A DNA stretch of 64,000 nt from Gemmatimonadales bacterium (GCA_038250675.1 JBBSCB010000002.1:2658-66657), one strand, 5' to 3'. Counted from the first letter of the stretch, positions 1-52,157 are shown. Made by a program: numbers and translations. The notes: generated by a model from the letters alone, not told the origin.

Positions 1-669
1 GCCGAGCGGGTCCACCGTCAGGACGCCCGAGCGGATGTTCCGCAGAATGTCGTCCGCCTCGAGGCGGACGCGCTGGAGCTCGGTCTCCAGCGTGGCCTGC
101 TCCATCCCCGCCTCGCGCAGGCGGTGGCCCAGCAGCGCCACTACGGCGAACACAATGTTGAAGAGCAGCAGCTGCGCCCAGAACGCCAGGTCCACGCTGC
201 CCGGGATGTAGTGCGTAGCGCCGATGGCGTAGGCGATTGACGCCGCCACCACGGTCAGCGCGCCGGCCCTGAGCGGCATCAGCACGGCGTACGCCGCGAT
301 AACGAGCACGTAGATGGCCGGCGCGAGACTGGTGCTCGGTCCCACCAGATAGACCAGGAGCGTGGCGAGGCCGAGGTCGGTCACGGCCTGGACGCCAAGG
401 AACAGCGCGCCAACATCGCGTCGACGCACGAACACCGCCCAGGCGCCGTACGTCGTCACCGTAAAGGCGACGAGGACCGCGATGGCGACGAGAAATGCGG
501 CATCGGGCCGGACGGTCGACACGAGCGCGGCGCCCACCAGCATGCCGAGGGCGAGCAGCAACCGGCCCGCGAAGAGCCAGGAAAGCAGCGTGGGCTGGTT
601 GGGCAACGACTTGGCGTGCCGGCGGGCGGCGGGTGCGGTGCCGGGCCGTCCGGAGGTCGCGTCGTGCAT
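1..669 (-). CDS. Sensor histidine kinase, N-terminal part (gene continues past position 1)
   Basis: Not in the ORF track. Manual minus-strand translation from ATG (669..667) gives MHDATSGRPG...LLSWLFAGRLLLALGMLVGAALV... with about 6 hydrophobic helices. This is followed by a coiled coil and LEADDILRNIRSGVLTVDPLG (start of a PAS-like domain). The frame is open to the window edge. Confidence 0.45.
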   Translation of the reverse strand, partial: MHDATSGRPGTAPAARRHAKSLPNQPTLLSWLFAGRLLLALGMLVGAALVSTVRPDAAFLVAIAVLVAFTVTTYGAWAVFVRRRDVGALFLGVQAVTDLGLATLLVYLVGPSTSLAPAIYVLVIAAYAVLMPLRAGALTVVAASIAYAIGATHYIPGSVDLAFWAQLLLFNIVFAVVALLGHRLREAGMEQATLETELQRVRLEADDILRNIRSGVLTVDPLG

Positions 670-731
670 CACACCTCGGAGAGCGGCGACGGATTTCGCA
701 GAGCGAGCCGCAAATATAGCATATTCCGCCC

Positions 732-1109
732 ATGCCATGGTTCGTGTACATCGCCCGCTGCGCGGACGGGAGTCTCTATACCGGCGTCACCACCGATGTG
801 GTGCGTCGGCTGCGCCAGCACAACGCCGCGCGCGGCGCCGCGTACGTGCGCACCCGGCGGCCCGCGACGCTGGCCCACAGCGAACCGGCACCAGATCGCG
901 GTGCCGCGTTGCGGCGCGAGCATGCCATTAAGGCAATGACGCGCGACGCGAAGCTGCAATTGATCAGTGCGTCGATGTCGCCGGCGGCACGGATTGATGC
1001 AGACCGGCCGGGCGCCGCAAAGGCGCCCGGCCGGCACGAACGGAATGTGACGGGCCTCAGTGGCCGACGTGCTTCTGTGCCACCTGTGCCGCGGCGAGGT
1101 GCGCCCTGA
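732..1109 (+). CDS. GIY-YIG nuclease superfamily small protein (UPF0213/YhbQ-like)
   Basis: The N-terminus MPWFVYIARCADGSLYTGVTTDVVRRLRQHN fits the GIY..YxG..R..N core of small GIY-YIG proteins. The 3' tail overlaps the convergent gene by about 50 nt. Confidence 0.8.
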   Translation: MPWFVYIARCADGSLYTGVTTDVVRRLRQHNAARGAAYVRTRRPATLAHSEPAPDRGAALRREHAIKAMTRDAKLQLISASMSPAARIDADRPGAAKAPGRHERNVTGLSGRRASVPPVPRRGAP

Positions 1110-1659
1110 GCACCGGAATCGTGTTCTGCAGCAGCGCCTTTACGCCGGTGCCGGCGGCGGCCGGAAGCAGCGTGTTCTGCAACTTGTCGATCGTCGCCGT
1201 ATGGTCGTCGATCTCCTGCTGGACCCAGGCGCTGTCGGCGGCGGCACCGCTCAGGCCCTGGAGCCCGGCCGGTGCGGCAGTGGCGGTGTCGACCGCCGGC
1301 AGCGTCACATTGAGCGTGGCGGCGGCATCGGTAACCTGCCGGAGATTGGCGACGTGGTCGGTGGCAAGCCGCGTCGCGAGGGTCCGCACGGACGCGTTTG
1401 AGGTCTGGACGCGCATGTAGCGCGCGCCGCCGATCTCGGCCGCATCGGCGCGCGCCACCTGAGAGAGGATGCCCGCATCATCCAGCGCTATCGTCGTGTC
1501 GGCGGCGGGGGCCGCCATCGGCGCTGTGGTATCGGGAGTTGCCATTGCCGACGTGTCGCCGACGGCGTTGGCCGGGCGTTCGCCGCCCGAACAGGCAGCG
1601 GCAAATGCGGCAAGGGTGAGGAGTGCCCACTTCTTGACCGGTCTCCTGCTGAAGGTCAG
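1057..1659 (-). CDS. DUF4142-family lipoprotein
   Basis: C-terminal ~190 aa of ORF 1057..2061. It has a lipobox signal (KKWALLTLAAFAAAC), then ARADAAEIGGARYM...LATDHVANLRQV...EIDDHTATIDKLQ, typical of DUF4142. No in-frame ATG/GTG/TTG lies near the signal peptide. A CTG at 1659..1657 overlaps the upstream stop (CTGA), so the start is uncertain. Confidence 0.65.
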   Translation of the reverse strand: MTFSRRPVKKWALLTLAAFAAACSGGERPANAVGDTSAMATPDTTAPMAAPAADTTIALDDAGILSQVARADAAEIGGARYMRVQTSNASVRTLATRLATDHVANLRQVTDAAATLNVTLPAVDTATAAPAGLQGLSGAAADSAWVQQEIDDHTATIDKLQNTLLPAAAGTGVKALLQNTIPVLRAHLAAAQVAQKHVGH

Positions 1660-1970
1660 CGCGAGGCGCGGCCTTCGGGCGGGGCACCTGCCTCGGTGAC
1701 CGTGCCGCGCCGTTCCGGCGGGCGCCCGCTGTTGCCGTCGGCCGCCGGGTGATGGATCGTCTCCGAGGTGTCCTGCTGAATCCGGCCCGAGACGGCCGTG
1801 GGATCGGAGCCGCCGGTGACGCCCTCCGACCCGGGCGCCGTCTCGACCGTGGCGCCGCGGTTGGCCGAGCTGTCCGCGTAATCGTCGGGCGAGCAGCCGG
1901 CGAGCATGAGCGTGACGCCCATCGCGATCGCGGGCACAAGGAACGGGTACCGGCCATGGCGCTTCCGCAT
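1656..1970 (-). CDS. Small hypothetical lipoprotein
   Basis: Internal ATG (1970..1968) of ORF 1656..2162 gives MRKRHGRYPFLVPAIAMGVTLMLAGCSPDD (lipobox LAGC), followed by a low-complexity Gly/Thr/Ser/Pro tail. No recognisable domain. Confidence 0.4.
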   Translation of the reverse strand: MRKRHGRYPFLVPAIAMGVTLMLAGCSPDDYADSSANRGATVETAPGSEGVTGGSDPTAVSGRIQQDTSETIHHPAADGNSGRPPERRGTVTEAGAPPEGRASR

Positions 1971-2085
1971 CGGCTTCCTCGGGTCGAGATGAATGAGTTC
2001 CGGCCGGCCCGGCCGGATCGCCACGGCGTCGTTCAAGATGCGCCCACCGCGCGCACGACAATGTGACAGATGACCACCGGATTTT

Positions 2086-5000
2086 CTAGCGGTCGAGCAG
2101 CTGACGGATCCGGGCCGTGAGGCTCTGGGGTGAAAACGGCTTCTCGAGCAGGGCGACGTCACGCTCGTCGCCGCCCCGTCGCAGCGCCTCGCTCCCGGTG
2201 TAGCCCGACATGAACAGGATCGGGATGCCCGGACGGCGCTGGCGCAGCTGACCCGCCAGCGACTTGCCGTCCATGCCGGGCATGACCACGTCGCTCAGCA
2301 CGGCGTCGACCTCCAGGCCGCCGTCTACCAGCGCCAGCGCTGCGGCGCCGCCGCTCGCCTCGGTGACGGCATAGCCGGCCTGGCGGAGAATGCGTGCGGC
2401 CAGCGCCCGGACGGCGGCCTCGTCCTCCACCACGAGAATCCGCTCGGTCCCTCCCACTGGCGGGGCGCCCGGCTCGGGATCGGGCTCGACCGGTTCGGCC
2501 ACCTCAGGCAGCCACACGGTGAACGACGTCCCCTGCCGCGCCTGGCTCTCCACCCAAAGATAGCCGCCGGTCTGCGACACGATGGCGTACACCACCGAGA
2601 GGCCCAGTCCGGAATTCTGCGCACCCGGCTTGGTGGTGAAGAACGGCTCGAAGATGCGGGCCCGCGTGTCGGTGTCCATCCCCTGCCCCGTGTCCCGGAC
2701 GATGAGCCGGACATACCGGCCGGCCGGCATCTCGAGCCCGAAGAGCCGGTAGGCGGCGCCCGGCGCCAGCGAGACGCTCCGGGTCTCGATGGCGAGCGTG
2801 CCGCCCCCGGGCATCGCATCGCGCGCGTTGAGCGCGAGATTCATGATGACCTGCTCGAGCTGGCCGCGATCGGCCCGCACCGCACCGAGCGCCGGCAGGG
2901 ACGTCTCGAGGGCGATGCGCTCTCCCACCAGGGGGCGGAGCATCTTTTCCATGTCGCGCACGACGACGTTGAGGTCCACGAGACGGGGCCGCACCAGCTG
3001 CGCGCTGCCGAACGACAGGAGTTGCCGGGTGAGCCCCGAGGCCCGCTCGGCGGCCTTCCGGATCTCCTCGGCGTCGCGCCGGCGCGGGTCGTCGGCGTCG
3101 ATCGCCTGGTAGAGAAAATCCGCGAAGCCGATGATGATCATCAGCATGTTGTTGAAGTCATGCGCCACGCCGCCGGCCAGCCGCCCCACCGCCTCCATCT
3201 TGTGCGCCTGCCGGACCTGCTCCTCAGCGCGTCGGCGCTCGGTCAGGTCCTGCACGTTGGCCGCATAATAAAGAAGGGTGCCGTCCGCATCGCGAATGGC
3301 CGCGAGGTCGACGACCGCGGGGATCTCCTGTCCGTCGTGCCGCCGGTGGGTCACTTCGAAGGTCGCGCGCCCCTCGCGCCGGGCGACGTCGAGCCGCCAG
3401 GCCTCCTCCGGATCGGCCCCTTCCCCAAGGAGCCGCGTGACCGGCCGGCCCACCAGCGCCTCCGGCTCGTAGCCGTGGATCCGGGCGAACGCCGGGTTGA
3501 GGGCCTCGAGCGTCTGGCCGTCAGCGCCGAGGATCACCACCCCCCACCCGGCGTGCTCGAAGATGTGCGCCCACTTGCGGAGACCGGCCTCGGCCCGGGC
3601 GCGCTGCTCCAGCTCCGACTGCGCGGCGCGGTAGAGCCGCGCATTGAGCACGGCGAGCGCGGCGCGCGCCGCCAGATCGCGCGTCACCGCCAGGTCTGCC
3701 TCCTCGTAGTGGCGGCCCGATTCCGCGAAGCAGAAGGTGAGCGCACCCAGCGTCTGGCCGCGCGCGATCAGCGGTACGCTGATGAGCGATCGCGGCGCAA
3801 GGTCCCGCAGATAGGTTCGATGCGCGTCGTCGCGCCCGATCCCGGTCAGCTCCTGCGCCGTCATCTCGGGGATGAACGTCGGCTCGCCGCTCACCAGTGC
3901 ACGCGAGATCGGATGATTGGTCCAGCGAGGATCCGGCGCGTGTCGAAGCGACTCCGCGCGGAGCCGTTCCCCCTTGGCGGGATCGCGATGGGCAAACTCC
4001 ACCCGCTGCACCTGCCCGCCCTCCTCCAGCAGATCCACCAGGCAGTAATCGGCCAGCGCGGGCACGGCCATGCGGCCGACGGCGGCGAGCGTCGAGGCGT
4101 ACTCGAGCGAGGAGCTGAGCGCCGCGCTCGCGTCGGCCAGCGCCCGCTGCGCGCGCTCCTGCTGGCGGCGGGAAGTGACATCGAGATAGGCGCCGACCGC
4201 ACCGCGGATGTGGCGCGGCCGGTCGAGGATCGGGGCGACGTAGCACAGGATCGCCAGGATCCGGCCGTCCGCCCGCTGGATCTCGACCTCCTCGCCGTCG
4301 ATCAGCTCGCCGCGCTCGGCCCGCGACATGGGCAGCTCATCGGCCTCGAGCGGTCGGCCATCGCGATAGAAGCGATAGGGGACCCGCTCCGCGGCGTCTG
4401 CGTCAGCCGACGGTACCGTCCCTGGCGGAATCCCGAGGATGCGAGCGAGCGCCGGATTGATCCGGAGCGCTCGTGCGTCGGGATCGAGGCTGATGCCGAT
4501 GCCCACCGGCATCACGTCGAGCAGGGTCTGCAGCTCGGTGACCCGGCGCGCGAGGTCGACATTGAGGCGGCGGATCTCGACTTCGGCGCTCTTCCGCTCC
4601 GTCACGTCCCGCGAGTACGAAACGACACCGTCGGCGGTGGGACTGATGCGAACGCTGAACCAGCGTTCGAACGGTCCGGGCTGGACCTCGATCTCGACCG
4701 GCCGCTGAAGGGCCACCGCGCGCTCGGCCGCGGCCTGAAGATCGGTGCCGGCCAGCGCCGGTATCGCCTCCCAGAGCACGCGTCCCACGAGGGCATGCCG
4801 GGTGAGGCCGAGCGGGGCGAGGTACGGCTCGGCCCGGGCGTTGACGAGGGTCACGCGCCATGCGTGATCGCAAGCGATGAACACTTCGCGGATCGAGTCG
4901 AGCATCGTCGACGCGTCGACCGTCGGACCGGGCGCCGCACTCGCGACGGCGGTGAGCCCTCCGGATGCCGCGTAGAGCCGGATGTCCACCGGTGACGCGA

Positions 5001-5259
5001 CGGCGTCGGCGAGTCGGACCCACTGTACGCCCGCCCCGGCACGGAGCGCCGCCGACACGGCGGCCGCCAGCGACGCCGCGGTTGAACCGGCCGGCGACGA
5101 CGTCAGCAGCAGGCCGGCATCGGCCGATCCGTACATCCGCGTGAGGAGCCCGCCGGCCGCCGCGTTGGCAAACGTCAGGCGGCCGTCGGCATCCGCGACA
5201 AAGACCGGATCGGTGATCCGCTCGAGCGCGGCCTCACCGCCGGGAGACGCGTCCGCCAT
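2086..5259 (-). CDS. Hybrid sensor histidine kinase/response regulator (multiple PAS, GAF, HisKA, HATPase_c, REC)
   Basis: H-box AHKMEAVGRLAGGVAHDFNN; N/G boxes NLALNARDAMPGGG, DTGQGMD, GLGLSVV; receiver RILVVEDE...DAVLSDVVMPGMDG...KPF. The start is taken at MADASPGG (ATG 5259), 4 nt after the upstream gene's stop. The longer track ORF (to 5526) overlaps that gene. Confidence 0.9.
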   Translation of the reverse strand: MADASPGGEAALERITDPVFVADADGRLTFANAAAGGLLTRMYGSADAGLLLTSSPAGSTAASLAAAVSAALRAGAGVQWVRLADAVASPVDIRLYAASGGLTAVASAAPGPTVDASTMLDSIREVFIACDHAWRVTLVNARAEPYLAPLGLTRHALVGRVLWEAIPALAGTDLQAAAERAVALQRPVEIEVQPGPFERWFSVRISPTADGVVSYSRDVTERKSAEVEIRRLNVDLARRVTELQTLLDVMPVGIGISLDPDARALRINPALARILGIPPGTVPSADADAAERVPYRFYRDGRPLEADELPMSRAERGELIDGEEVEIQRADGRILAILCYVAPILDRPRHIRGAVGAYLDVTSRRQQERAQRALADASAALSSSLEYASTLAAVGRMAVPALADYCLVDLLEEGGQVQRVEFAHRDPAKGERLRAESLRHAPDPRWTNHPISRALVSGEPTFIPEMTAQELTGIGRDDAHRTYLRDLAPRSLISVPLIARGQTLGALTFCFAESGRHYEEADLAVTRDLAARAALAVLNARLYRAAQSELEQRARAEAGLRKWAHIFEHAGWGVVILGADGQTLEALNPAFARIHGYEPEALVGRPVTRLLGEGADPEEAWRLDVARREGRATFEVTHRRHDGQEIPAVVDLAAIRDADGTLLYYAANVQDLTERRRAEEQVRQAHKMEAVGRLAGGVAHDFNNMLMIIIGFADFLYQAIDADDPRRRDAEEIRKAAERASGLTRQLLSFGSAQLVRPRLVDLNVVVRDMEKMLRPLVGERIALETSLPALGAVRADRGQLEQVIMNLALNARDAMPGGGTLAIETRSVSLAPGAAYRLFGLEMPAGRYVRLIVRDTGQGMDTDTRARIFEPFFTTKPGAQNSGLGLSVVYAIVSQTGGYLWVESQARQGTSFTVWLPEVAEPVEPDPEPGAPPVGGTERILVVEDEAAVRALAARILRQAGYAVTEASGGAAALALVDGGLEVDAVLSDVVMPGMDGKSLAGQLRQRRPGIPILFMSGYTGSEALRRGGDERDVALLEKPFSPQSLTARIRQLLDR

Positions 5260-5263
5260 CGCG

Positions 5264-7543
5264 TCAGCGGCTTCCCGTACGGGCGCCGGCGGGCGCGGCA
5301 AAACCGTACAGCGCACGATAGATCTGCCGGTTGCGCTGGATGATGCGGACGTAGTCCCGGGTCTCGCGATAAGGAATTCGTTCGGCGAACAGCTCTTCGT
5401 CGTCCATGCCGACCTTGGTTCCCCAGCGCTCGACCCGCGTGGTCCCCGCGTTGTAGGCCGCGAGCACCTGCACCGTGGCAGGATAGCGGCGGACCAGCTC
5501 GGCCAGGTGGCGGGTGCCGAGCTCAAGGTTCACGTCGGGCTGATAGAGCAGCACCGGATCCCAGAGCGGAAAGCCTGCGGCCCGGGCCAGCGCGTGGCCC
5601 ACCGCCGGCATGAGTTGCATCAGCCCGCGCGCGCCCGCCGGCGACGTCGCGCCCGGCGTGAAGATCGACTCCTGCCGGATGAGCGCGGCGACGAAGGCCG
5701 GGTCGAGCCCCTCGTCGCGTGAGTACGCGTCCAGCGCCTCCGGCGCCGCCAGCGGAAATAGCAGGCGGAAGGTCCTCGCATCACGCGCGGCCCCGCGGCC
5801 GACGGCGCGCCATGCCGTCTGCACCGCGCAGGAGGCGAGTCCGTGAGCGCGAAATGCGGCGGCGGTGGCGAGCAGCCGGTCGACCGAGCTGTCGGCGGCG
5901 CGCGACAGGGCGTCCTGCTCCCAGCGCGCCTCGCGCGCCATGCCGAGACTGTCGAGCAGCTCGGAGCGGGCGAGCGCACTGTCCACGTCGGGCACCGCGA
6001 CGAATGAATCCGCGGCCGCGGACGGCACCCACGGCGCGCGGCCAAGGCGTTCCTCCGACGCGGCGGCATAGTACGACAGCGGATCGCGCGTCGCGACGTC
6101 CTGCCACCGGATCCGGGCGCCGGCCGAGTCGCCGGTCGCCGCGAGCGCGCGTCCGGCCCAGTACCGTGCCGCCAGCACTTCCCCGCTCTCGGGATAGCGC
6201 CGGACCAGACTGTCGAGTTCGCGCCCGGCGGTCCGGGTGTCTCCGGCGGCGAACGCGATGATCGCGGCGCGAAAGAACGCACCCGGCGCCAGGCGGCTGC
6301 CGGGATACTGCCGTACCAGCGACAGCAACGCGCCGCGGGCAGGCGCATCCCGCCGTTCATCGGTGGCGAGATCGGCGAGGAGCAGCAGCGCCGTCGCGGA
6401 TGCTTCGGTGACGTCGGGATAGCGGCGCAGCACTTCCCGCAGCGCGGAGCGTCCCTCGCCGCCCTCGCCGGCACGCACGAGCGCCCGGGCCCGGGCGTAG
6501 GCCGCGTTGGCGGCCAGGCTGCGCGGTGCCCGCACGAGATTGTACTGGAAGGCCGCGTCCGCGTACCGCCGGAGCCCGAAGAGTGCCGTCGCGTACGCAT
6601 AGCGATCGTCCGCGGTGCCCGCCCCGGCCTTGAGCGCACGACCGAGTGCCGCGGCGGCGGCCGCGGCCGCGCCGGCATCGGCCAGCGCCCGTCCCACCAG
6701 CAGCTCATCCCCCGGCGCGAGCGGGCGGAAGGCATCGAGCGCGACCGCGGCCGCGTGGCCCTGGGACGAGGTCCGCGCCTCGGTCACCGCCGCCAGGAGC
6801 TCGGCACGGAGCGCCGCGCGCGCGGCGGGGGCGGTGTCGGCGGCGAGCCGAAGCCGATAGGCGTCGGTCCAGCCGCTCAGCGCGGCATACCGCGCGGCGG
6901 CACCCCTCAGGTCGCCCGCGCGCTCCCGCGCCTCGGCCTCGGCCAGCGGCAGCCGGTTGCGCACGACGCCGGACGCAATGGCCGCCGCGAGCTGCCCGCG
7001 GGCAGCGCTGTCGTCGGTGAGAGCCACGGCGCGGAAGGTGAGCCAGTCGGCCACGCGCGGCAGTGCGGCGGCGGCCGCCCGATACGCCATCGACGCGCTG
7101 TCGCGTCGGTCGAGCCGGTCGAGCGCCCGCGCCGCCAGCACCTGCCGCATGGCACGGGTCCGATCGTTGCGCGCCGCATCGACAGCGAGCCGGGCGTGGC
7201 GCAGTGCCACCGAATCGGCCTGACGATCGAGCGCAGCGCGGGCCAGCAGCTCGCGGCCCCGGCCGCCCTGCAGTGAATCCACCCAGCCCGCGCCGGCCAG
7301 GAGTCGTTCAACTTCGGTCCACCCGCCCCACGCCCCGGCGGCTTGCGCGGCGAGGAGGAGCACGGCGGGGGTCCGGCTGCCGGAATCGCGGAGCACCGGC
7401 GCAAGCATGCGGCTGGCGCGCCAGGGCTGGCCATGCGCCAGCGCGGCGGCCGCAGCGGCCACGAGCGAGTCCGGCGGAGGGCGTCGGGGCAGGGCCTGCG
7501 CGGAACCGAGGATGGCGAGCGAGACGGCGAGCAGACTCATCAC
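5264..7543 (-). CDS. Soluble lytic murein transglycosylase (Slt70-like: helical-repeat N-domain + SLT domain)
   Basis: C-terminal SLT motifs ALIRQESIFTPGATSPAGARGLMQLMP...AAYNAG. Long Ala/Leu/Arg-rich superhelical N-domain. Signal peptide MMSLLAVSLAILGSA|QA. Confidence 0.85.
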   Translation of the reverse strand: MMSLLAVSLAILGSAQALPRRPPPDSLVAAAAAALAHGQPWRASRMLAPVLRDSGSRTPAVLLLAAQAAGAWGGWTEVERLLAGAGWVDSLQGGRGRELLARAALDRQADSVALRHARLAVDAARNDRTRAMRQVLAARALDRLDRRDSASMAYRAAAAALPRVADWLTFRAVALTDDSAARGQLAAAIASGVVRNRLPLAEAEARERAGDLRGAAARYAALSGWTDAYRLRLAADTAPAARAALRAELLAAVTEARTSSQGHAAAVALDAFRPLAPGDELLVGRALADAGAAAAAAAALGRALKAGAGTADDRYAYATALFGLRRYADAAFQYNLVRAPRSLAANAAYARARALVRAGEGGEGRSALREVLRRYPDVTEASATALLLLADLATDERRDAPARGALLSLVRQYPGSRLAPGAFFRAAIIAFAAGDTRTAGRELDSLVRRYPESGEVLAARYWAGRALAATGDSAGARIRWQDVATRDPLSYYAAASEERLGRAPWVPSAAADSFVAVPDVDSALARSELLDSLGMAREARWEQDALSRAADSSVDRLLATAAAFRAHGLASCAVQTAWRAVGRGAARDARTFRLLFPLAAPEALDAYSRDEGLDPAFVAALIRQESIFTPGATSPAGARGLMQLMPAVGHALARAAGFPLWDPVLLYQPDVNLELGTRHLAELVRRYPATVQVLAAYNAGTTRVERWGTKVGMDDEELFAERIPYRETRDYVRIIQRNRQIYRALYGFAAPAGARTGSR

Positions 7544-15543: not shown

Positions 15544-18500
15544 CTAGCGCGGGGCGTCGAGCTGGTCGAGGTAACCGCGGATGAGGCCGGGCGCGCCGGA
15601 ATCGAGCACACCCATGTGCGTGGCGCGCACTCGGTCGATCGTCACCCGCGCAACGTCTCCCCAGCCCTGTCGCGGTGCGGGACGCGTGGCGTCGTCCGCG
15701 ACCGCCTGGATGAGCCGGATCTCGCCGTCGTAACGCCGCGGCACGAATGAGAGCGACGCGCCCGCACCGGCCTCGACGGCCGCGGACACTGCGTCTACCG
15801 GCCGCGGCGTCACACCGTCCTGCCCCGACGCCCCGCGGCCCGCGCCCCGCCTCAGCGTCCGGCGAACTACGCGCAGCACGGTCGCCGCACGGTCCGCCGC
15901 CGGACGCTGCCACCACGCGCGCCAGCGCCACGCGTGCAATGCGAGCCGCCGGGCCGTGCGGGCGCGGGCCCCGGGCCCGGCTCCGGCGCGAGCGACAAGC
16001 CGGCTCACCAGCGGGACCAGTCGTCGCCAGCGGCGAATGATTCCATTCAGCCCGCTGCTCTCCACCAGCACCACCAGCTGAACCGTTTCGCCCTGCTCAC
16101 GCAGCCGGCGGGCGACTTCGAAGGCCGCGAGCCCGCCATCGCAATAGCCGCCGATGCGATAGGGGCCACCGACGGTTTTCCGGATCCAGTCGGCGTCGGC
16201 GGCGGCCACGCCCTCGATCGTATCGAGCGCATCATCCTGTGCGGGTCCCACCAGGTAGATCGGCTGCTCGGGTCCGAGCTGGCGCACGATCTCGCGGCAA
16301 TAGAGACCACCGCCAAGCGCATCCGGATGGAAGAAGATGAAGGGCACCCTGCCGCCGGCTGGGTTGACCTTGACCACGCGCACCACCGGCTCATGCTCGG
16401 CTGCGTCGGGCAAATGCGCGGCGATACGTGCGATCGTCGGGCCTTCGAACAGCGTGCTGAGCGCGATCGAGCGGCCGAACGCGCGCCGGATCTCCGCCAC
16501 CATGCGCATGGCCAGCAGCGAATGCCCTCCCAGCGCGAAGAAATCGTCTTCGACGCCGATGGGCCAGACGTTGAGCAGCCGGTCCCAGATTTCGACCAGC
16601 ACATGTTCGGCTCGCGTGCGCGGCCGGACGATCTCCTCCTCGCGGCGCGCGAGGGCCGGCGGCGGCAGCGCGGCCCGGTCGATCTTGTCGCTGGACGTGC
16701 GCGGGAGCGCCGGCAAGGGCACCAGCGTCGACGGGATCATGAAGCCGGGCAGCCGACGCCGGAGATGCTCCACCAGCTCGGCCAGCGCACTGGACGCGTC
16801 GTCGTGGCCTCCGTGGAATACCACGTACGCGACGAGTCGCTGATCACCGGTGCCACTCTCCCGGGCTTCGACCGCGCATTCGCGCACGGCGTGCGATTCG
16901 AGCAGCGCCGATTCGACCTCCCCGATCTCGACGCGAAACCCGCGAACCTTCACCTGGCGGTCGAGACGGCCGAGGTACTCGAGGTTCCCGTCGCCGCGCC
17001 AGCGGACAACGTCTCCGGTGCGGTAGAGCCGCTGGCCATGCGCAAACGGATTCGGCACGAAGCGCTCGGCCGTCAGGTCCGGCCGCCCCAGATACCCGTC
17101 GGCGAGCTGCGCGCCGCCCACATAGAGCTCCCCCGGCACTCCGCGCGGCGCGAGGTTTCCCCAGCGGTCGAAGACGTATACGCGGGTGTTGGGGAGCGGT
17201 CGGCCGATCGCCACGACACCGACCGCATCGTCGTAGCCGGGAGGCAGCAGATAGCGGGTCACGACGACCGTCGTCTCGGTCGGCCCATAGCCGTTGAAGA
17301 GGCCGGTGTGGGGCGCGACCTTCCGCCACAGCGCGGCGCGCTCGGGCAGCATGCGCTCGCCGCCGACGCACATCAGCCGAAGCGCTGGCGGTATCGCCTT
17401 CCCTGCCTCCGCCAGGGCGCCGACGATCTCGTGCCACAGCGCGGTGGGCGGCACCGCGACCGTGACCCCCCAGTCCGCGCAGCGTGACATGAAGCCGTCG
17501 ACCGACTCGGCGGCGACTGCATCGCGGAGCACCAGCGCCGCACCGGCCGCGAGCGTCGGGAATATCTCGGCCACCGACGCGTCGAAGTTCGGCGTCGCGA
17601 ACTGCAGCACGCGGTCACTGGGCGAGAGCTCGTAGTTGCCCAACGTCCCGAACGTAAAGGCGACCAGCGCCCGGTGCCCGATGACGACACCCTTGGGTGT
17701 TCCGGTGGACCCGGACGTGTAGATCACATACGCCGCGTCCTCCGGCGTCGCCGGCCCCGGCGACCACCCGGCCGCCGGCCCTGCCGGGAGCTCGTCGAGC
17801 GCCACCATCGGGACGCTGGTGACCGCGGCGAAGCGCTCCCGGCCCGCGCGCGTGACCACGATGCAGCCGAGCGAGGCGTCGGTCACCATGAAGGCGAGCC
17901 GGTCATCCGGGAAGTCGGGATCGAGCGGCACGTACGCCGCTCCCGCCGTCATGATCCCGACCATGCCGGCGATAAGATCGGGAGAACGCGGCACCGCGAG
18001 CCCGACCCGACTGCCACGCCCGATTCCCTGATTCCGTAGTGCCTCTGCCACCACCTCGGCGCGCGAGAGCAGGTCGGCGTAGGTGAGCTCGCGGCCCTCG
18101 CCCGTGACCGCGATTGAGTCCGGCGCTGTCGCGGCGCGGTCCGCGATCAGATGATGAATGCATGCCTGCCCGGGCAGCGGCGCAGTCATTCCGGCCAGTG
18201 GGCCCAGCAGCTCGTCCCGTTCCGGAGCAGCCAAAAGCGGCAGCCGCATGGCCGCGCTGTCCGGCTCGTCCACCGCGGCGCGGAGGAGCCGCTCGAGATG
18301 GCTCAGTAGCCGGGCAACCGCCTCGCGATCGAAGAGCGACGCGGCGTAGACCAACGTGCATTCGAGCCAGGCAGCCGTCTCGGTGATCTCGAAGTCGAGA
18401 TCCACCATTGTCGCTTCGCCGCGATAGTCGAGGCGGGTGACGGCGGCCTCGCCAAGCGCGGGCGCCACGGGCGGAAGGTTCCGGAAATTCAGGAGCACCT

Positions 18501-20546: not shown

Positions 20547-22414
20547 GCGACGTCCGCCAGCTGGCTGCCGAGACTCTCCGCCATGCCGGCAATGGTAGGC
20601 GCGTCGAACAATGCCAGCAGAGAGAACTCCACATGCAGCGCCTCGCGCAGACGCGCGGCCAGCTGCGCCGCCAGGATCGAATCGCCGCCGACCGCGAAAA
20701 AATTGTCGTGTACGCCACCCGGGCTGCGGCCGAGGACCCCGGCCCAGATGGAGGCGATCACTTCCTCGACCGGCGTCCGCGGCGCGACGCTTTCAGTCGG
20801 CGCGAGCGGCCACTCCGCCTCGATTCCGAGCGTTGCGGCCAGCCCGATGCGCTTGGGCTTGCCGGTTGGGCCCTTCGGCAGGGACTCGAGGAACACGATT
20901 CGGCGCGGCACCTTGAAATACACCAGCCGTCCGGCGACATGCTCCCGCAGCTCGAACGGTGACGCGACGGCACCGGGTCGCAGCACGACCGCCGCGGCGA
21001 CCTCTTCGCCGAGCGCCGGGTGCGGCACCGCAAAACTCAGCGCCTGTCCCACCGCCGGGTGCGCCATGAGCGCCTCGTCGATCTCGAGCGGTGAGATCTT
21101 CTCGCCGCCGCGATTGATCAGCTCCTTCAGCCGCCCGGTGAGGAAGAGATAGCCGTCCTCGTCGAGATGCCCCTGGTCGCCGGTACGGAACCACCCATTG
21201 GTGAATGCGGCCGCGTTGGCCCCGGGGTTGTGCGCGTACCCCGGCGTGACGTTGGGCCCGCGGATGACCACCTCGCCGGTGGCGCCGGCCGGGAGCAGGG
21301 CACCAGCCGCATCCATGATGGCGATCTCGGGGCCCGCCGCGAGGCCGACAGAGCCGGCCTTCCGCTCCCGCGGCGGGAGCGGATTGCTCGCCATTTGATG
21401 CGCGGCTTCGGTCATGCCGTACGCCTCGACCACGGGCACGCCGAACGTGCGCTCGAGCTCGAGCAGCGTGGGGCGCGGAAGTGCTGACGATGAGGACCGG
21501 ATGAAGCGAAGCCTCGAGCGCGCGATGATGTCGGCATGTTCGCCGGCGCGATCCAGTATCGCCTGGTGCATCGTGGGCACCGCGGTGTACCAGGTCGGCG
21601 CAAACTCCGCAATCCAGTCAAAGAAACGCGGCGCCTGAAATCCGGGCGGGCACGCCACGCTGGCGCCGGCCGCGAGCGAGGAGAGCGTCGCGCCGATCAG
21701 ACCGTGAATGTGGAAGAGCGGCATGACGTTGAGACAGCGATCGGCCGGACTGAGAGCCAGCGCCCGGCCGATGTGGCCGGCCGACGCCGCGAGATTGGCG
21801 TGTGCGAGTGGTACCATCTTGGGGCGGGAAGTCGTTCCCGAGGTATGGAGCGCCAGGGCGACGTCATCGGGTGACGGCTCACGAACCTCCGCCGCCGCCG
21901 GCAACAGGCCGTCGACGGTAAACCGGCCGGCCGTCTCACCTGCGGCCGGTGCAAGCTCCATGATGCCGATGCCCCGGGCTCGGGCCACGTCACGCGCGGG
22001 CGAGTCGAGGTCAGTGGCGATGAGCAGCGCCTTCGCGGACAGATCGTCGAGATAGAACTCGAGCTCCGCTCGGCCGTACGCAGGATTGAGCGGGGCGCAC
22101 ACCGCGGCACCGGCCACGGAGAGGAACGCAGTCGCCATGTCGGGACCGGTGGGGACTATCACCGCGACGGCATCGCCGCGCCCGAGCCCACGGTCGGCCA
22201 GCGCGGAGGCGACGCCACCCATGTGGGCCATCAGCCCGGCGAACGACAGCGGCGGGCGGTCCACCGAGTGAATGGCGAGCGCGCTTGGCGTGCGCTCCGC
22301 GCGTCGGGCAATGAGCTCGGGAAGAGTGCTCGGATGCGACAAACCGATCTCCCTGAATACGAGTGGACCGCCGGAGTGCAAGTCCCATGCTCTGGCTGCA
22401 CTCCGCCGGACCAT
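20543..22414 (-). CDS. AMP-dependent acid ligase (AAE3/Pcs60 oxalate-CoA ligase-like) fused to C-terminal carrier (PCP/ACP) domain
   Basis: LHTSGTTSRPKMVPL, MPLFHIHGL, TWYTAVPTMHQAILDR, EAYGMTEA, GEVVIRGPNVTPGY, WFRTGDQGHLDEDGYLFLTGRLKELINRGGEKISPLEID, PKGPTGKPKR, then the carrier motif NFFAVGGDSILAAQL. An alternative TTG start at 22342 is preceded by AGGGAG. Confidence 0.9.
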   Translation of the reverse strand: MVRRSAARAWDLHSGGPLVFREIGLSHPSTLPELIARRAERTPSALAIHSVDRPPLSFAGLMAHMGGVASALADRGLGRGDAVAVIVPTGPDMATAFLSVAGAAVCAPLNPAYGRAELEFYLDDLSAKALLIATDLDSPARDVARARGIGIMELAPAAGETAGRFTVDGLLPAAAEVREPSPDDVALALHTSGTTSRPKMVPLAHANLAASAGHIGRALALSPADRCLNVMPLFHIHGLIGATLSSLAAGASVACPPGFQAPRFFDWIAEFAPTWYTAVPTMHQAILDRAGEHADIIARSRLRFIRSSSSALPRPTLLELERTFGVPVVEAYGMTEAAHQMASNPLPPRERKAGSVGLAAGPEIAIMDAAGALLPAGATGEVVIRGPNVTPGYAHNPGANAAAFTNGWFRTGDQGHLDEDGYLFLTGRLKELINRGGEKISPLEIDEALMAHPAVGQALSFAVPHPALGEEVAAAVVLRPGAVASPFELREHVAGRLVYFKVPRRIVFLESLPKGPTGKPKRIGLAATLGIEAEWPLAPTESVAPRTPVEEVIASIWAGVLGRSPGGVHDNFFAVGGDSILAAQLAARLREALHVEFSLLALFDAPTIAGMAESLGSQLADVA

Positions 22415-22499
22415 CCGCAGCTGTTGCCCTGCAACGTCTTAGACGAATCGCACCAGCCTCGCGCGCGGGACCCGAGGCGGGCGTGCCACACAAGCGGCG

Positions 22500-24140
22500 C
22501 TACTTGAGGCGCGGCTCCGTGGTACGCGGAGCCTTCACGCACGCCGGCCAGGTCGTGGGGAAACGACGGCCGCGCCCGGCGCCCGGACCGGTTTGCGGTG
22601 CCGCGGCCTCGCGCGCCGCGGCGATGGCCGCCAGGTCCACCCGCTCACGCGTGATCGTGGTCGGGTCCTCGGACGCGAGGTAGGCCAGCATCGCCGTCAG
22701 CGTCGCGTTCGACTTGAGATCATCGAACACGATCTTGTCGTAGGTGTCCCGGTTCGTGTGCCACGTATAGTTGCCGTAGTCCCAGCTGAGCGCCCCGAGC
22801 CCAAACGCCGGCGCACCGTAGCAGGCAAACGAAAAATCGTCGCTGCCGCCGCCCGCGGGAAAACCGGGACCGCCGAAATTCACCTGAGCCTTAAACTCCG
22901 CGGGGACCTGGTCGAGCCAGCGGGTGATGTGCTCGGCGGCGTTGGGGAGTCCGGCGCCGCCCATGCGCACGACGCGGCCAGTGCCGTTGTCCTGGTTGAA
23001 GAGCGCCTGCAGCCCCTTGATGACCTCGGGATGGTCTTCCGTGAATGCCTTGGAGCCGACCTCGCCCTCCTCTTCGCCGGCCCAGTGGCCCACCAGGATG
23101 GTGCGCCTGGGGTGCGGATACACCTGCTTCAGGATCCGCATCGCCTCCAGCATCGTGATCGTGCCGGTGCCGTTGTCGGTAGCGCCCGACGAGCCGTCCC
23201 ACGAATCGAAGTGGGCCGACAGCATCACGTACTCATCCGGCTTCTCGCTGCCCTTGATCATCGCGATCGTGTTGAAGACCGGCCGCTCGCCCAGCAGCTC
23301 GGCGTCAAGATTGAGGCGCAGCCTGGGGTGCTGATCGTTTTCGGTCAGGCGGAAGAGCAGCCCGTAGTCCTCGCAGCTCAGCGCGATCGCCGGCGCGCGC
23401 GTGTTGTAGGTCTCGAAGATCTCGATCGTGCCCCAGGCATCCTTGGGCCGGGAGGTGACGACGCCGGCGACACCGCCCTCCTCCAGCCGGAGGCCGAGCT
23501 CCCCGGTGCCGATCGCCAGGCTGTAGCCGGTGCCGCGCACGTCGCGCCCGCCCCACTCCCGCTGGAGCTGTGCGCGCAGACTGTCCATTCGCGCCTTCGA
23601 CTCCGGCGTGGCGTTGGTCGCCCAGTCCTCGCGGGGCCGACAGGTGGGCTGCGGAGCCGCCACCAGCACCAGCTTGCCGCGGGCGCTCGCCAGCCACTTC
23701 ACGAACTCGGTGCTGTCGGCAAAACGCGGCAGGATGACGGTGCTGGCGACGAGGTCCTTTCGCCCCGTGCCGGGACTGTACCCGAGCATCGTGCCCTCCA
23801 GCGAGCGCACTCGCGGCTCGACGAGGTCGATGTGCGAATAGCCCCGTCGCCAGCCGCGCCACGTCCCGAACTGCTCGTTCTTCGCGTCGATACCCCACGA
23901 CTTGTAAACATTCACCAGCCAGTCATTGCCGCGTCTGGCGTCCGGCGATCCGGTCAGCCGCGGCCCGATCGAGTCGAACAGCGCCTGCGAGAGCTGCATC
24001 GTGTGCGAGCTGTCCATCCCGATGGCCCAGATCCGCCCGATGACCGGATCGTTGCCGGGGAAGGTTTGCGCGTCCACCGCGGCGGGCAGCGTACCCAGCG
24101 CGAGGGCGGCGGCGATGCACAGTCCGAGCTTGCGAGTCAT
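22500..24140 (-). CDS. Secreted M28-family metallopeptidase (aminopeptidase-like)
   Basis: Start at MTRKLGLCIAAALALGTLPAAVDA|QTF. Zinc motifs SAHFDSWDGSSGATDNGTG, GHWAGEEEGEVGS, WHTNRDTYDK. Confidence 0.8.
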   Translation of the reverse strand: MTRKLGLCIAAALALGTLPAAVDAQTFPGNDPVIGRIWAIGMDSSHTMQLSQALFDSIGPRLTGSPDARRGNDWLVNVYKSWGIDAKNEQFGTWRGWRRGYSHIDLVEPRVRSLEGTMLGYSPGTGRKDLVASTVILPRFADSTEFVKWLASARGKLVLVAAPQPTCRPREDWATNATPESKARMDSLRAQLQREWGGRDVRGTGYSLAIGTGELGLRLEEGGVAGVVTSRPKDAWGTIEIFETYNTRAPAIALSCEDYGLLFRLTENDQHPRLRLNLDAELLGERPVFNTIAMIKGSEKPDEYVMLSAHFDSWDGSSGATDNGTGTITMLEAMRILKQVYPHPRRTILVGHWAGEEEGEVGSKAFTEDHPEVIKGLQALFNQDNGTGRVVRMGGAGLPNAAEHITRWLDQVPAEFKAQVNFGGPGFPAGGGSDDFSFACYGAPAFGLGALSWDYGNYTWHTNRDTYDKIVFDDLKSNATLTAMLAYLASEDPTTITRERVDLAAIAAAREAAAPQTGPGAGRGRRFPTTWPACVKAPRTTEPRLK

Positions 24141-24178
24141 GTCGTCGAGTCCAGTCCAGAGTGGAAGGAGGTGATGGG

Positions 24179-26032
24179 CTACCGTCCGGCGACAATCGGG
24201 AAGACCACCTGCGACTCCGGCTCGCTGAGCACCACCAGCCGATAGCGCCCCGGCGATGGTGTCCACTCGAAATCATAGGTTTCCCCCACCCGGACGGGCT
24301 GCACGGCGGGCCGGGCGAGGGACTGGCCCGGCGGAAGATCGGCGCCGTCCTTGGCCACCGGGCGCCAGCCCACCAGGGTCGTGTCGCGGAGCAGTCTCAC
24401 AGTTACGCGCGCGGCAAACTGCATGTTGATGAGCCGCAGCCGGTGCGGGATGCCCGCGCGCCAGTGCTGCGGGGCCGGCAGCGAATCGCCGTTGACGAGC
24501 AGGTGCGGCGGATCTGCCGGGCCATCGCTGCCGGCGATGAAAACGTGGTCGACGGCCGGCTGGAACCGATGGCCCGGCTCCAGCACCACGATGGCGCCGT
24601 ACATTCCGGCCGTCAGCTGAGCCAGGTCGTTCATGTGGGTATGGTAGATGAACGTGCCGGCCCGGGCGAGCGTGAGGTGGGCATCGAAGGAAGCTCCCGG
24701 CGCGATCCACGGCGCCCGGCGGGCTCCAACGCCGCTCCAGCCCGCCACGCCGTCGGACCAGCTCTCCAGCTCCAGCCCGTGCCAGTGCACCGCCGTGGCC
24801 TCGCTGAGGCGATTGACGACGCGGACCGTGGCCGGCTCGCCCCGTGTCAGCACCAGCACGGGCCCCGGGATCGCCACCGAATCGCGCGCGGGCGGGTGGT
24901 CGCCGCGCTGCAGCACGTACCCGCGCGTCACCGGAGCACGGCCGCGGCGCGGGCCCTGCTGCACATACAGGCGAAGCAGGTGCGGCGCCCCGACGGCGGC
25001 CGGCGCCGCGCCCGACCCCGGCGCCACACTGATGCCGAGCACCAGCCCGGCCATGTGCCGCTCAGGGTCATGTGCCATGCGCATCGCCGTGTCCTGCTCG
25101 GCCGGTGCCTCCAGCGTGGCATCGACGGTCACGTGGTACCCGATATGGCAGTGAAACAGCCAGTTGCCCTCCCGCTCGGGTACCCAGGTGATCGCCATCG
25201 TCGAGAACGCCGTCATCGGTTCCGTCACGGCCAGTCGCCGCTCCGCGGGCGCGTAGACGGTATCCGCCCCGACATCCCCGCGCGAATCGACCCGGAAGAA
25301 AAAGCCGTGCAGGTGCATCGGATGCCCGCGGCCGTTGGCGTTGACCCAGCGCCAGCGCAGCGTATCGCCCACCGTCGCCGTGATCCGCTCATCGTAGGGC
25401 CAGGAGCGGCCATTGATCGTCAGCGCATTGATGTAGCGCGTCGAATCCACCTGTCGGCCCCAGACGTTCATGACGAACACCCGGTCGGGTGGGACCGGAC
25501 CCGGCGGATCCACGATGAAGGCGCCACCCGTCGTTTCGCGTTCGTCATCGACGTCGACCTTGTGCCGCCCCAGCACCGCGCCGTAGAGGTAGGTGCCGGG
25601 CAGACCGGCGACGAAGTGCACCGCCGCGCGCTCGCCCGGGTGGAGCACCACCGAATCGGCCGCCGCGCCCGGGTGCGGCGCCAGGCCGTGCCAGACGATC
25701 GTCGAATCGGTGAGCGCGTTGTACAGGTGGGCGATCACGATGGTACCGACGCGCACCCGGATCAGCGGTGCGGGAATCTCGGGCGGCCGACCTTCCTCAC
25801 CGATGGCCGCCACCTCGATGCCGGCTCCGCTGTCGGCCTCGGGATGCCACCGCGCCATGGCAACCGCGAGATGGACCTCGAAGCTGTCCCCGACCATGCG
25901 GCCCGCCGGTGTTCGATTGTCGTTGGGATGCACCTCGGGCAGCACGGAGCCGCGCTCGCGGGCACCGCCCACCAGCAGCGCCGCGACGGCGACGAGCAGC
26001 GTCGAACGGCGCCCGAACCGGACGGAAGTCAC
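24179..26032 (-). CDS. Multicopper oxidase (three-cupredoxin type)
   Basis: Copper motifs [33 protein letters not shown]. Possible Tat-like N-terminus [19 protein letters not shown]. The start is ambiguous (GTG 26032 or ATG 26089). Confidence 0.8.
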
Positions 26033-50300: not shown

Positions 50301-50531
50301 GTTGTCCACAATGTAGCCGCCGTCGGAGCGTGAGGTGACGGTGTGGGTCTCACCGGTCGCAACCTGGGTCAGCGTCACGTTCGCGCCCGGCACCGGAGTG
50401 CCGCCCGCTTCGCTGATGACGCCGGTGATGGCCGCCGACGTGATGCCCTGGGCGCTCGCCTGCCGGCCGCTCGCGGTCGCCAGTGCGACGAGCCCAAGGA
50501 CGTACCCTGCCTGACGTATCCACTGCTTCAT
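47331..50531 (-). CDS. TonB-dependent outer-membrane receptor with N-terminal carboxypeptidase-regulatory-like domain
   Basis: Start MKQWIRQAGYVLGLVALATASGRQASA|QG. CarbopepD_reg-like ITGVISEAGGTPVPGANVTLT...SDGGY. Plug and barrel follow, ending in ...RMQVGAKYAF (terminal Phe). Confidence 0.85.
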   Translation of the reverse strand: MKQWIRQAGYVLGLVALATASGRQASAQGITSAAITGVISEAGGTPVPGANVTLTQVATGETHTVTSRSDGGYIVDNASAGGPYTLSIRAIGYQPIRVEGLRLLLGQRLSRNVEMTRAAVQLADVRVPSVSILTDVSRTGPSTVVSDTAIQRYPLLGRNFTDLIQTAPQVSGTSVAGQNNRFNNIQIDGGVNNDLFGLASSGTPGGQANAKPISLEAVQEFRVEVAPFDVRQGNFTGGLVNAVTKSGTNQFHGSLFSYYRGKGIAGYRDDPTFNSFNVYQYGGTFSGPIMRDKLQFFLSADLQSSKSSYSSTFQLTGDNTSDLATTGFTLADAQRFHDILVNQYNFGEPGLGTAPPLSNPDKNLFGKLTWQVGANSRVELSHNWVDASQDQLTRGPTSPRFSTTSPNYRDGYQLSASGYQQANRTNTTRLKWTTTFGNNYANEFLAGGQWVRDHRAITNQTPLILVDVGKVGSLDSWLAAGADKFSQGNLLNQNIYSVADNLSFDIANNHRMTVGTSDEFFKFHNVFTAGSYGAWAFASLDSLANGEAEGYQISLPGDPTLRPDGAVADFSVKQLGAFLQDRWTVNDRISVTGGVRVDVPLFNAPITNPNLTADPNLPIDTGVFPSGNALWSPRLGFNIDADGKSTTVIRGGAGIFSGRPAYVWLSNAYVGTGLETATLSCLTGATIPTFPGGSLADQPTACAGGGGATPATANPVYFDKNFRFPQSLRVALGLDRQLSHGFVASADFLYAKNRNNLYIQDNNLKESAALSGEGRYLYGTFAASNGRATKDLVRSDIGNALFHRNSSGGRSVSITGQLSKTFGHGLALNAAYTYANTKDVISLTSSIAFSNYQFASLDGSLFNRNVTTSAFDVPHKITISGTADLPFHSQFSLIYQGLSGTPYGWTTSGDANADGINGNDMTFVPGDASQITLASGSSFAAVDAFIASQPCLAASRGSLLPRNACRNPWRNFLDARLATTLPSIRGRGIQLSLDMFNVLNFMSHNWGLSNQVSGFEEGPAFLKVVGYDPGNNRPIYSFAPPSTILRTSFGANSSRWRMQVGAKYAF

Positions 50532-50579
50532 GGCTGATGTCCTCACCGGAGAAGGAAGGTGTGCGCCGACGGCGCGCGG

Positions 50580-50603
50580 CCGGACCGTCCGGTGACGGTC
50601 CGG
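50580..50603 (-). other. Stem-loop in the permease/TBDR intergenic region (terminator or leader structure)
   Basis: CCGGACCGT-ccggtg-ACGGTCCGG, 9-bp stem. It lies downstream of the candidate TBDR promoter, so it could sit in the receptor's 5' UTR. Confidence 0.35.
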
Positions 50604-50650
50604 CGTAAGGCGTTGAATGCGCAGATGGCCGGGGACTTCATTCCGGCGGA

Positions 50651-50678
50651 AGTATACGCCCGGGACCTTGGAGGTCAA
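50651..50678 (-). promoter_or_regulatory. Candidate sigma70-like promoter for the TonB-dependent receptor
   Basis: Minus strand: TTGACC (50678-50673), 16-nt spacer, TATACT (50656-50651). The -35 overlaps the permease stop codon. Confidence 0.35.
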
Positions 50679-52045: not shown

Positions 52046-52157
52046 GCAGTCAGATTCCGTGGTTGAGAAGTCTGTAACGTGGGCCCGGAAATTTGGCTTG
52101 ACAAGGGGGGAACACGGGCCGTTCTTTCGCCACTTCGGACACACTCTCAGGCGGACC

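Follow-up and report, generated by a model that had tools for sequence, protein, structure and literature searches.

A three-gene cassette from a Gemmatimonadales bacterium joins a predicted oxalate-loading ligase-carrier protein, an ICL/PEPM-family lyase and a single nonribosomal peptide synthetase module

We analyzed a 64,000-nucleotide stretch of DNA from a Gemmatimonadales bacterium (GCA_038250675.1 JBBSCB010000002.1:2658-66657; hereafter the window, with a G+C content of approximately 70%), in which three minus-strand genes occupy positions 15,544 to 22,414. They encode an adenylate-forming ligase with a C-terminal carrier (T) domain (gene 1), a lyase of the isocitrate lyase/phosphoenolpyruvate mutase (ICL/PEPM) type (gene 2) and a nonribosomal peptide synthetase (NRPS) module composed of condensation (C), adenylation (A), carrier and thioesterase (TE) domains (gene 3; Table 1). 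At both junctions the genes overlap by 4 nt, with the GTG start codon of the downstream gene lying on the TGA stop codon of the upstream gene. These GTGA overlaps had been reported in a preliminary description of the locus, and the open reading frame (ORF) coordinates and both junction sequences agree with it. The two overlaps imply that translation of the three proteins may be coupled. The start position of gene 1 is uncertain and gives a protein of 599, 612 or 623 residues, depending on the gene caller.

Gene 1 matched the Pfam families AMP-binding (residues 36-393, E = 1e-71), AMP-binding_C and PP-binding (residues 552-613, E = 1.8e-16), and its carrier domain contains the phosphopantetheine attachment motif GGDS, consistent with its earlier description as a ligase with a C-terminal carrier. 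When the ligase was compared with all PDB sequences, the highest scores were obtained for three characterized oxalate-CoA ligases, AtAAE3 of Arabidopsis (5IE0, 402 bits), LsOCS of Lathyrus (6QJZ, 398 bits) and Pcs60 of yeast (8AFF, 356 bits), followed by the LgrA NRPS A domain (216 bits) and malonyl-CoA synthetase (212 bits). The top NCBIfam model was the FadD7 family, with a score below the cut-off of that model. The oxalate pocket of AtAAE3 is formed by V215, H216, C288, S289, A313, M314, H319 and K500, and Ser289 and His319 were described as conserved solely among oxalyl-CoA synthetases (PMC8905533). In the same study LsOCS preferred oxalate over malonate by approximately 10^4-fold and had no detectable activity with succinate, glycolate or lactate (PMC8905533). 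Alignment of the window ligase with AtAAE3 (approximately 45% identity) placed the residues I H S S G M H K at the eight pocket positions, compared to VHCSAMHK in AtAAE3; Ser289, His319, His216, Met314 and Lys500 were kept and the changes were V215I, C288S and A313G. The signature IH(S/C)SGMHK was found in 19/19 complete ligase-T proteins that adjoin a lyase gene and in six further ligase-T homologues.

The bit scores and the retention of Ser289 and His319 place the ligase with AAE3 and Pcs60 and not with the fatty-acyl or aryl-acid ligases, as the initial proposal required. Given the 45% identity to AtAAE3 and the conserved oxalate pocket, the ligase is predicted to load oxalate. Members of the AAE3 clade use free CoA as the acceptor, whereas the window protein has a GGDS-containing carrier domain fused to its C-terminus, and its own phosphopantetheine arm is therefore the expected acceptor, although CoA might also serve. 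Gene 1 most likely encodes an oxalate-loading didomain, a prediction made from these sequence features.

The product of gene 2 belongs to the PEP_mutase family (PF13714, E = 1.2e-38) and carries the ICL/PEPM active-site residues D88, D90, E117 and RRC125GH, with a gating loop that contains xGK, as in oxaloacetate acetylhydrolase (OAH), DML and the petal death protein (PDP). The previous assignment to the lyase-type ICL/PEPM enzymes holds, since the protein combines PF13714 with a lyase-type loop and lacks the PEP-mutase motif EDKxxxxxNS. Two specific identities were rejected. PEP mutase was rejected on the loop, which reads EDQKRPRRCGH, and on a TIGR02320 score of 75 bits (cut-off 320). Methylisocitrate lyase (MICL, PrpB) was rejected on a TIGR02317/NF008455 score of 161 bits (cut-off 354), on the replacement of Pro236 and Arg241 of MICL by Ser233 and Phe238, and on the lack of prp genes nearby. 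Comparison with PDB sequences gave similar scores for a Bacillus anthracis protein (4IQD, 122 bits), PDP (121 bits), DML (120 bits), MICL (108 bits) and OAH (107 bits), each at approximately 30% identity. Ser233 aligned with the Ser of OAH 3LYE and of PDP 1ZLP (Ser257 in PDP, which we take to be the marker position and which agrees with the alignment numbering), whereas MICL, 4IQD and DML have Pro at this site. The active-site Ser is a marker of oxaloacetate-hydrolase activity, according to a passage of PMC8224569 that cites Joosten/Han.

An AlphaFold2 model of the lyase (pLDDT 82) was searched against the PDB with Foldseek and matched 3M0J, 3FA3, 1ZLP and 3EOO (OAH, DML, PDP and MICL) equally well, with a TM-score of approximately 0.70, so the fold carries no information on specificity. 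In a neighbor-joining tree the lyase family formed a separate clade next to OAH and DML but outside both. An 11-residue signature, DDDECRDNASF, was invariant in 77 of the 82 family members. The lyase is not a methylisocitrate lyase, in line with what the initial proposal required, and it has the OAH-type Ser233, but it falls outside the fungal OAH clade, at approximately 30% identity to every characterized member of the superfamily compared. As judged from its sequence, the lyase is a member of a highly conserved, uncharacterized ICL/PEPM subfamily, for which OAH-like chemistry (oxaloacetate acetylhydrolase) is the best-supported reading.

Gene 3 begins with a C domain and ends in a TE, as previously described, with matches to the Pfam Condensation, AMP-binding, AMP-binding_C, PP-binding and Thioesterase families and intact motifs. 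HHIACDG, FDAS...K, GGHS and PF00975, the features expected of a type I NRPS module, are all present. The best PDB match was LgrA C-A-T (module 2), and MxcG and EntF ranked second and fifth among NCBIfam models. The specificity code of the A domain was extracted by MAFFT and BLASTP alignment to GrsA-PheA, with self-consistent numbering. The code reads DAA(V/A)CGGVVK, the two methods disagreeing at position 278. The presence of Asp235 and Lys517 indicates that the A domain would take an alpha-amino acid, and the small residues at positions 239, 299, 301 and 322 suggest one with a bulky side chain. The code matches no A-domain code known to us; those of the nearest relatives are DAMVAGAVHK (L044) and DAIVAGAVHK (L027). 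The TE has a Cys nucleophile in place of the usual Ser, and its lid region (approximately residues 1200-1300 of the NRPS) is unusually rich in Arg and Ala. Among 18 aligned homologous TEs (window included), 11 had GxCxG, six had GxSxG and one was unclear. Cys-type TEs are rare and have been linked to strained-ring release, as for obafluorin and sulfazecin.

Table 1 Features of the three-gene cassette, with positions counted from the first nucleotide of the window
Feature	Position	Strand	Size, read-out or basis
Gene 1, ligase + carrier	20543-22414	minus	623 aa; ORF call, Pfam
Gene 1 adenylation domain, residues 30-522	20849-22327	minus	alignment to AtAAE3
FHIHG, oxalate-pocket equivalent, gene 1	21701-21715	minus	AtAAE3 alignment
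IRSSSSAL, oxalate-pocket equivalent, gene 1	21479-21502	minus	AtAAE3 alignment
YGMTEAAHQM, oxalate-pocket equivalent, gene 1	21392-21421	minus	AtAAE3 alignment
PTGKPKR with catalytic Lys, gene 1	20849-20869	minus	AtAAE3 alignment
Carrier (T/PCP) domain, gene 1	20576-20761	minus	PF00550, E = 1.8e-16
Phosphopantetheine site GGDS, gene 1 carrier	20678-20689	minus	motif
GTGA start/stop overlap, ligase-T/lyase	20543-20546	minus	strand read-out gtcgcGTGAgcgcc at 20546-20543
Gene 2, ICL/PEPM lyase	19650-20546	minus	298 aa; ORF call, PF13714
Mg site VDIDDGY, lyase	20268-20288	minus	motif
Catalytic loop EDQKRPRRCGHFDGK, lyase	20154-20198	minus	RRCGH gating loop
OAH-marker Ser233 in IYSTPCLF, lyase	19833-19856	minus	alignment
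GTGA start/stop overlap, lyase/NRPS	19650-19653	minus	strand read-out ccacGTGAccgcc at 19653-19650
Gene 3, NRPS module C-A-T-TE	15544-19653	minus	1369 aa; ORF call, Pfam
Condensation domain	18205-19542	minus	Pfam
C-domain active site HHIACDG	19123-19143	minus	motif
Amino-acid adenylation domain	16684-18141	minus	Pfam, alignment to GrsA-PheA
Carrier (T) domain of module	16411-16602	minus	Pfam
GGHS of module carrier	16519-16530	minus	motif
Thioesterase domain	15547-16338	minus	PF00975 match covers residues 1106-1200
TE nucleophile motif GYCDG (Cys)	16132-16152	minus	motif
TE C-terminal His, ATHMGVL	15604-15624	minus	motif

The distribution of the cassette was examined through the lyase, of which one scan of species-representative genomes yielded 584 confirmed loci. 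The protein matches listed were 63-86% identical to the window protein and the genome loci 54-72% identical, with hosts among the Beta-, Gamma- and Alphaproteobacteria, Verrucomicrobiota, Gemmatimonadota, Cyanobacteria, Planctomycetota, Nitrospirales and actinomycetes. With profiles of the domains present in the window as queries, we annotated 82 loci in addition to the window. The order ligase-T, lyase and NRPS of one to three modules (type II) was found in 19 loci, window included, from at least six phyla (Gemmatimonadota, Cyanobacteria, Nitrospirales, Planctomycetota, Gamma-/Betaproteobacteria and Rhodothermaceae), and the three genes are thus co-conserved, as the initial proposal required. 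First modules vary among the type II loci and include the glycine code DILQLG(L/M)IYK (L046, L060 and L068), which suggests that the family would make various N-acyl peptides with a common cap. Four loci had a ligase-T-TE protein with a lyase (type III); 21 had a polytopic membrane protein of approximately 455 residues, a ligase, a small carrier protein and a lyase (type I); three had a lyase, a ligase, an acyl carrier protein (ACP) and an Eis-like GNAT (GNAT type). In a further seven, mostly on truncated contigs, a ligase or ligase-T adjoined the lyase, and in 29, 25 of them from actinomycetes, there was no ligase within 4.5 kb. Outside the actinomycetes a ligase lay within 4.5 kb of the lyase in 54 of 58 loci, two of the four exceptions lying at contig ends.

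The neighborhoods of a sample of six ligase-T homologues, all on long contigs, were also inspected. The lyase adjoined the ligase-T in L086 and L092, both with an NRPS. L087 (7001-13745) has a ligase-T, C-A-T-TE and a phosphopantetheinyl transferase (PPTase) and L090 (6001-13821) a ligase-T and a two-module NRPS, both without a lyase. L090 also adjoins 6PGD, G6PD and 6PGL, a pentose-phosphate neighborhood that it shares with the window. L091 (6001-9130) has a Lyase_1/ADSL_C family gene after the ligase-T, in place of the ICL/PEPM lyase, and L088 (7001-9694) has a ligase-T-TE with an oxalate-type pocket, but no lyase, in an exopolysaccharide (EPS) cluster of glycosyltransferase, sulfotransferase and Bac_transf genes. 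The ligase-T proteins of L087, L090 and L091 (59-61% identity) have the same oxalate-type pocket. The lyase is thus nearly always accompanied by a ligase and carrier while ligase-T and NRPS genes sometimes occur without it, as would be expected for a dedicated precursor supplier. The pairing of one lyase with two unrelated ligase families likewise favors a supplier role over on-line tailoring, as do the actinomycete homologues that stand alone.

Taken together, these data led us to consider it fairly probable that the operon encodes a minimal NRPS assembly line that makes an N-oxalyl amino acid and provides the precursor for it. The lyase would hydrolyze oxaloacetate to oxalate and acetate by means of its Mg site, the Cys of the RRCGH loop and the OAH-type Ser. 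The AAE3-type domain would adenylate oxalate and move it onto the phosphopantetheine of the fused carrier, not onto CoA. The NRPS A domain would load one alpha-amino acid, the C domain would form the oxalyl amide with its amino group, and the Cys-thioesterase would free the N-oxalyl amino acid by hydrolysis or possibly by cyclization. An oxalate pathway of this kind had been suggested in the preliminary description, and the ligase pocket, the presence of Ser233 in a lyase without the MICL Pro and Arg, and the co-conservation of the genes are consistent with it.

Several observations weigh against this model. The gene and domain architecture can be read directly, but every functional step assigned to it is a deduction from sequence. 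The lyase forms its own clade and is equidistant from OAH, PDP, DML and MICL (107-122 bits), and its family carries active-site substitutions, namely DxDT to DxDD (DIDDG), Glu188 to Asp185 and NxxE to NQIA. The lyase adjoined the ligase-T in just two of the six sampled homologues. The ligases of the type I and GNAT loci belong to a different family, approximately 27% identical to AAE3, with the pocket GHGSGISK and no His319, and in some contexts the lyase may therefore yield a product other than oxalate. The ligase-T-TE and lyase pairs have no visible acceptor and are unexplained by a simple model. Finally, no PPTase was found: as had been noted, the operon contains no MbtH, PPTase, transporter or tailoring gene, and a search for PPTase and MbtH signatures over the whole window likewise found none.

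Some of these points would fit an assembly line of the same kind that uses another starter acid (glyoxylate, pyruvate, malonate or propionate), made from a 2-alkylmalate-type substrate or, by another route, from oxaloacetate, an alternative that we regard as unlikely. The lyase clade stands apart from OAH with its own active-site substitutions, and PDP, which also carries the marker Ser, reportedly cleaves 2-alkylmalates as well as oxaloacetate. C288S and A313G slightly enlarge the pocket of the window ligase, and the type I ligases have a larger pocket, without His319. However, Ser289 and His319 were strictly retained in every AAE3-type ligase-T protein, and a gene dedicated to supply would be superfluous for common acids such as pyruvate and succinate. 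LsOCS, a characterized member of the clade, moreover favors oxalate over malonate 10^4-fold and accepts neither glycolate, lactate nor succinate (PMC8905533).

A second alternative, in which the lyase acts on a carrier-bound substrate (oxaloacetate or a keto-diacid tethered through C1 and converted to oxalyl-S-T) or tailors an NRPS intermediate, appears improbable. Its attraction is that the lyase gene lies between the carrier gene and the NRPS with overlapping stops, that the non-actinomycete lyase nearly always adjoins a carrier protein, and that the type III pairs are hard to understand if the lyase merely supplies a free acid. The dependence is nevertheless asymmetric, which argues against action on a tethered intermediate: L087 and L090 have a ligase-T and an NRPS but no lyase, and actinomycete homologues with an identical active-site signature adjoin a transporter, with no carrier near. 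We also know of no ICL/PEPM enzyme that acts on a thioester-tethered substrate. The AAE3 pocket, in addition, suits a C2 acid (PMC8905533). That gene 2 is instead a housekeeping methylisocitrate/isocitrate-type lyase, or that the genes serve oxalate catabolism or detoxification, with a neighboring NRPS of no biosynthetic significance in either case, is very improbable and already largely refuted: prpB was the top-scoring NCBIfam model for the lyase and plant and yeast AAE3 and Pcs60 serve oxalate degradation (PMC8905533), but the prpB score fell well below its cut-off, Ser and Phe replace Pro236 and Arg241 of MICL, the flanks contain no prp, oxalyl-CoA decarboxylase or formyl-CoA transferase genes, catabolism would have no use for the carrier fusion of the ligase or for the C domain that comes after it, and the synteny is kept across phyla.

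The proposed N-oxalyl amino acid assembly line resembles several characterized systems in part. The window ligase falls in the same clade as AtAAE3, LsOCS and Pcs60, with the same oxalate-pocket residues. The outcome would be like that of the plant beta-ODAP pathway, in which oxalyl-CoA and a BAHD acyltransferase give N-oxalyl-diaminopropionate, in that an amino acid is N-oxalylated; the window differs in using a fused carrier in place of CoA and an NRPS C domain in place of a BAHD enzyme, in its bacterial host and in its co-encoded lyase. With fungal OAH and plant PDP the window lyase shares the fold, the Mg ligands, the K/R-C-G-H loop with xGK, the Ser marker and the absence of the MICL Arg. 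It differs from both in its separate clade at approximately 30% identity, in DIDDG, Asp185 and NQIA, and in being bacterial and located within carrier-dependent cassettes. The logic of an ANL-loaded non-amino acid as the C-domain donor is shared with EntE/EntB-EntF, MxcE/F-MxcG, FAAL-ACP lipoinitiation and the fumonisin enzymes Fum10/Fum14 (tricarballylate esters), Fum10 being presumably in the same ligase subfamily as Pcs60. Compared to those NRPS starters, the window would use oxalate, a C2 diacid, and has an ICL/PEPM lyase gene between the synthetase genes and a Cys-TE. An oxalate-loading NRPS, an oxalyl-ACP or oxalyl-PCP and a bacterial OAH were each sought in full-text literature searches and not found, in line with the earlier statement that no characterized oxalate-loading bacterial NRPS was known. 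A 2024 review describes knowledge of bacterial oxalate biosynthesis as lacking beyond Burkholderia obc (PMC11045627).

The lyase also occurs in settings other than NRPS loci. In the type III loci (L010, L038, L055 and L062) a ligase-T-TE with an oxalate-type pocket adjoins the lyase and there is no C domain; in Nostoc (L038) the pair comes after an HlyD/FtsX/ABC exporter. Type I loci, exemplified by L001 (4832-8858), were found in Methylophilaceae, Accumulibacter, Propionivibrio, Verrucomicrobiota, Steroidobacteraceae, Binatia and others (the remaining loci being L007, L009, L012-L018, L020-L022, L024, L025, L028-L030, L033, L041 and L045). Their carrier is a small DltC/ACP-like protein, their ligase is of the non-AAE3 kind, and an LtaS-like 'Sulfatase' gene was present in 12 of the 21. 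The type I membrane protein has several hydrophobic segments, a faint DltB match (E = 5e-4) and a motif, EFWNRYYYYFKE, that resembles the MBOAT core; a PDB profile search and Pfam scans of 13 members found no support for an MBOAT identity. Type I loci share with DltABCD a ligase, a small carrier and a polytopic membrane protein, often with the LtaS-like neighbor, but differ from it in having no Pfam MBOAT match, a ligase that is not DltA-like, no DltD and a lyase. In its make-up the type I cassette resembles a Dlt-type system for envelope acylation, to which the lyase would supply the acid.

A Gemmatimonadota variant (L035, L037 at 3-4490, and L043) has the lyase, a type I-like ligase, an ACP and a 409-residue Eis-like GNAT, and may represent an NRPS-independent N-acyl (oxalyl?) transferase route. 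Actinomycete lyases were 56-63% identical to the window protein and had the same active-site signature, with no ligase or carrier nearby. In 11 of these loci an SBF-like (DUF4137) transporter gene follows the lyase (for example L071, 9767-12061; also L052, L061, L066, L069, L072, L074-L077 and L085), which suggests a stand-alone pair that produces or exports a small acid. Across these contexts the ligase-carrier and lyase look like a portable acyl-donor unit for NRPSs, T-TE fusions, a Dlt-like membrane protein and a GNAT. More tentatively, and with rather less than even confidence, we propose that the lyase, ligase and carrier are a widespread portable oxalyl-donor unit behind undescribed bacterial oxalylation chemistry.

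The cassette is flanked by genes of primary metabolism, with RpiB, an HAD hydrolase, a 6PGD-like protein, G6PD and GH15 downstream and an M28 peptidase, a multicopper oxidase and PGM upstream. The closest relative (L089) has an identical three-gene cassette at 83-86% identity, and RpiB and HAD come after it there too. Neither these two flanking genes nor the M28 peptidase gene were accepted as cassette members, since they were kept in close relatives only; the flanks differ in more distant relatives and the conserved unit is therefore the three-gene cassette. A promoter and terminator scan of positions 14800-24600 gave only background-level signals. Scans of the whole window with Rfam and for tRNA and tmRNA found no family at the gathering score, no tRNA and no tmRNA.

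Elsewhere the window encodes a 2020-residue protein with SprA_N (38546-44605), a CarboxypepD_reg outer-membrane barrel (47334-50705), a GWxTD-domain protein (57569-59227), a CHU_C protein with a type IX secretion signal (60415-63999) and LptF/G proteins. Type IX secretion genes in DNA of approximately 70% G+C, with nearest named homologues in MAGs of Gemmatimonadota and Armatimonadota, make a host within the Gemmatimonadota probable. An ORF on the plus strand (51843-54062) fuses COX15/CtaA (heme A synthase) and UbiA/CtaB (heme O synthase), and, as called, it shares approximately 600 bp at its 5' end with an amino-acid permease ORF of the minus strand (50678-52456); the start of one or the other of these opposed ORFs is probably wrong. 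A large hybrid sensor kinase (2089-5529; PAS x3, GAF, HisKA, HATPase_c and receiver) lies approximately 10 kb downstream of the operon, to which no link was found.

If the proposed N-oxalyl amino acid pathway is correct, oxalate would join the starter units of NRPSs and the cassette would provide a short route, of three genes, to N-oxalyl amino acids, for which, to our knowledge, no biosynthesis is known outside plants. The cassette is small and easily expressed, so the oxalate hypothesis is directly testable. In medicinal chemistry synthetic N-oxalyl amino acids, close analogues of 2-oxoglutarate, are used as mimics that inhibit 2-oxoglutarate oxygenases (PMC3075650, PMC4316176), and natural N-oxalyl products could be antimetabolites or metal chelators. 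On the broader oxalyl-donor reading, several relatives with a Gly-type first module would yield N-oxalylglycyl peptides, and with the Dlt-like/LtaS-like, EPS T-TE or GNAT partners the oxalyl group would go to envelope polymers or small amines. In Accumulibacter, Methylophilaceae and Verrucomicrobiota, the Dlt-like and EPS neighbors raise the possibility of a new kind of envelope modification. The lyase family would then be the missing bacterial enzyme that converts oxaloacetate to oxalate, giving a function to an uncharacterized ICL/PEPM subfamily.

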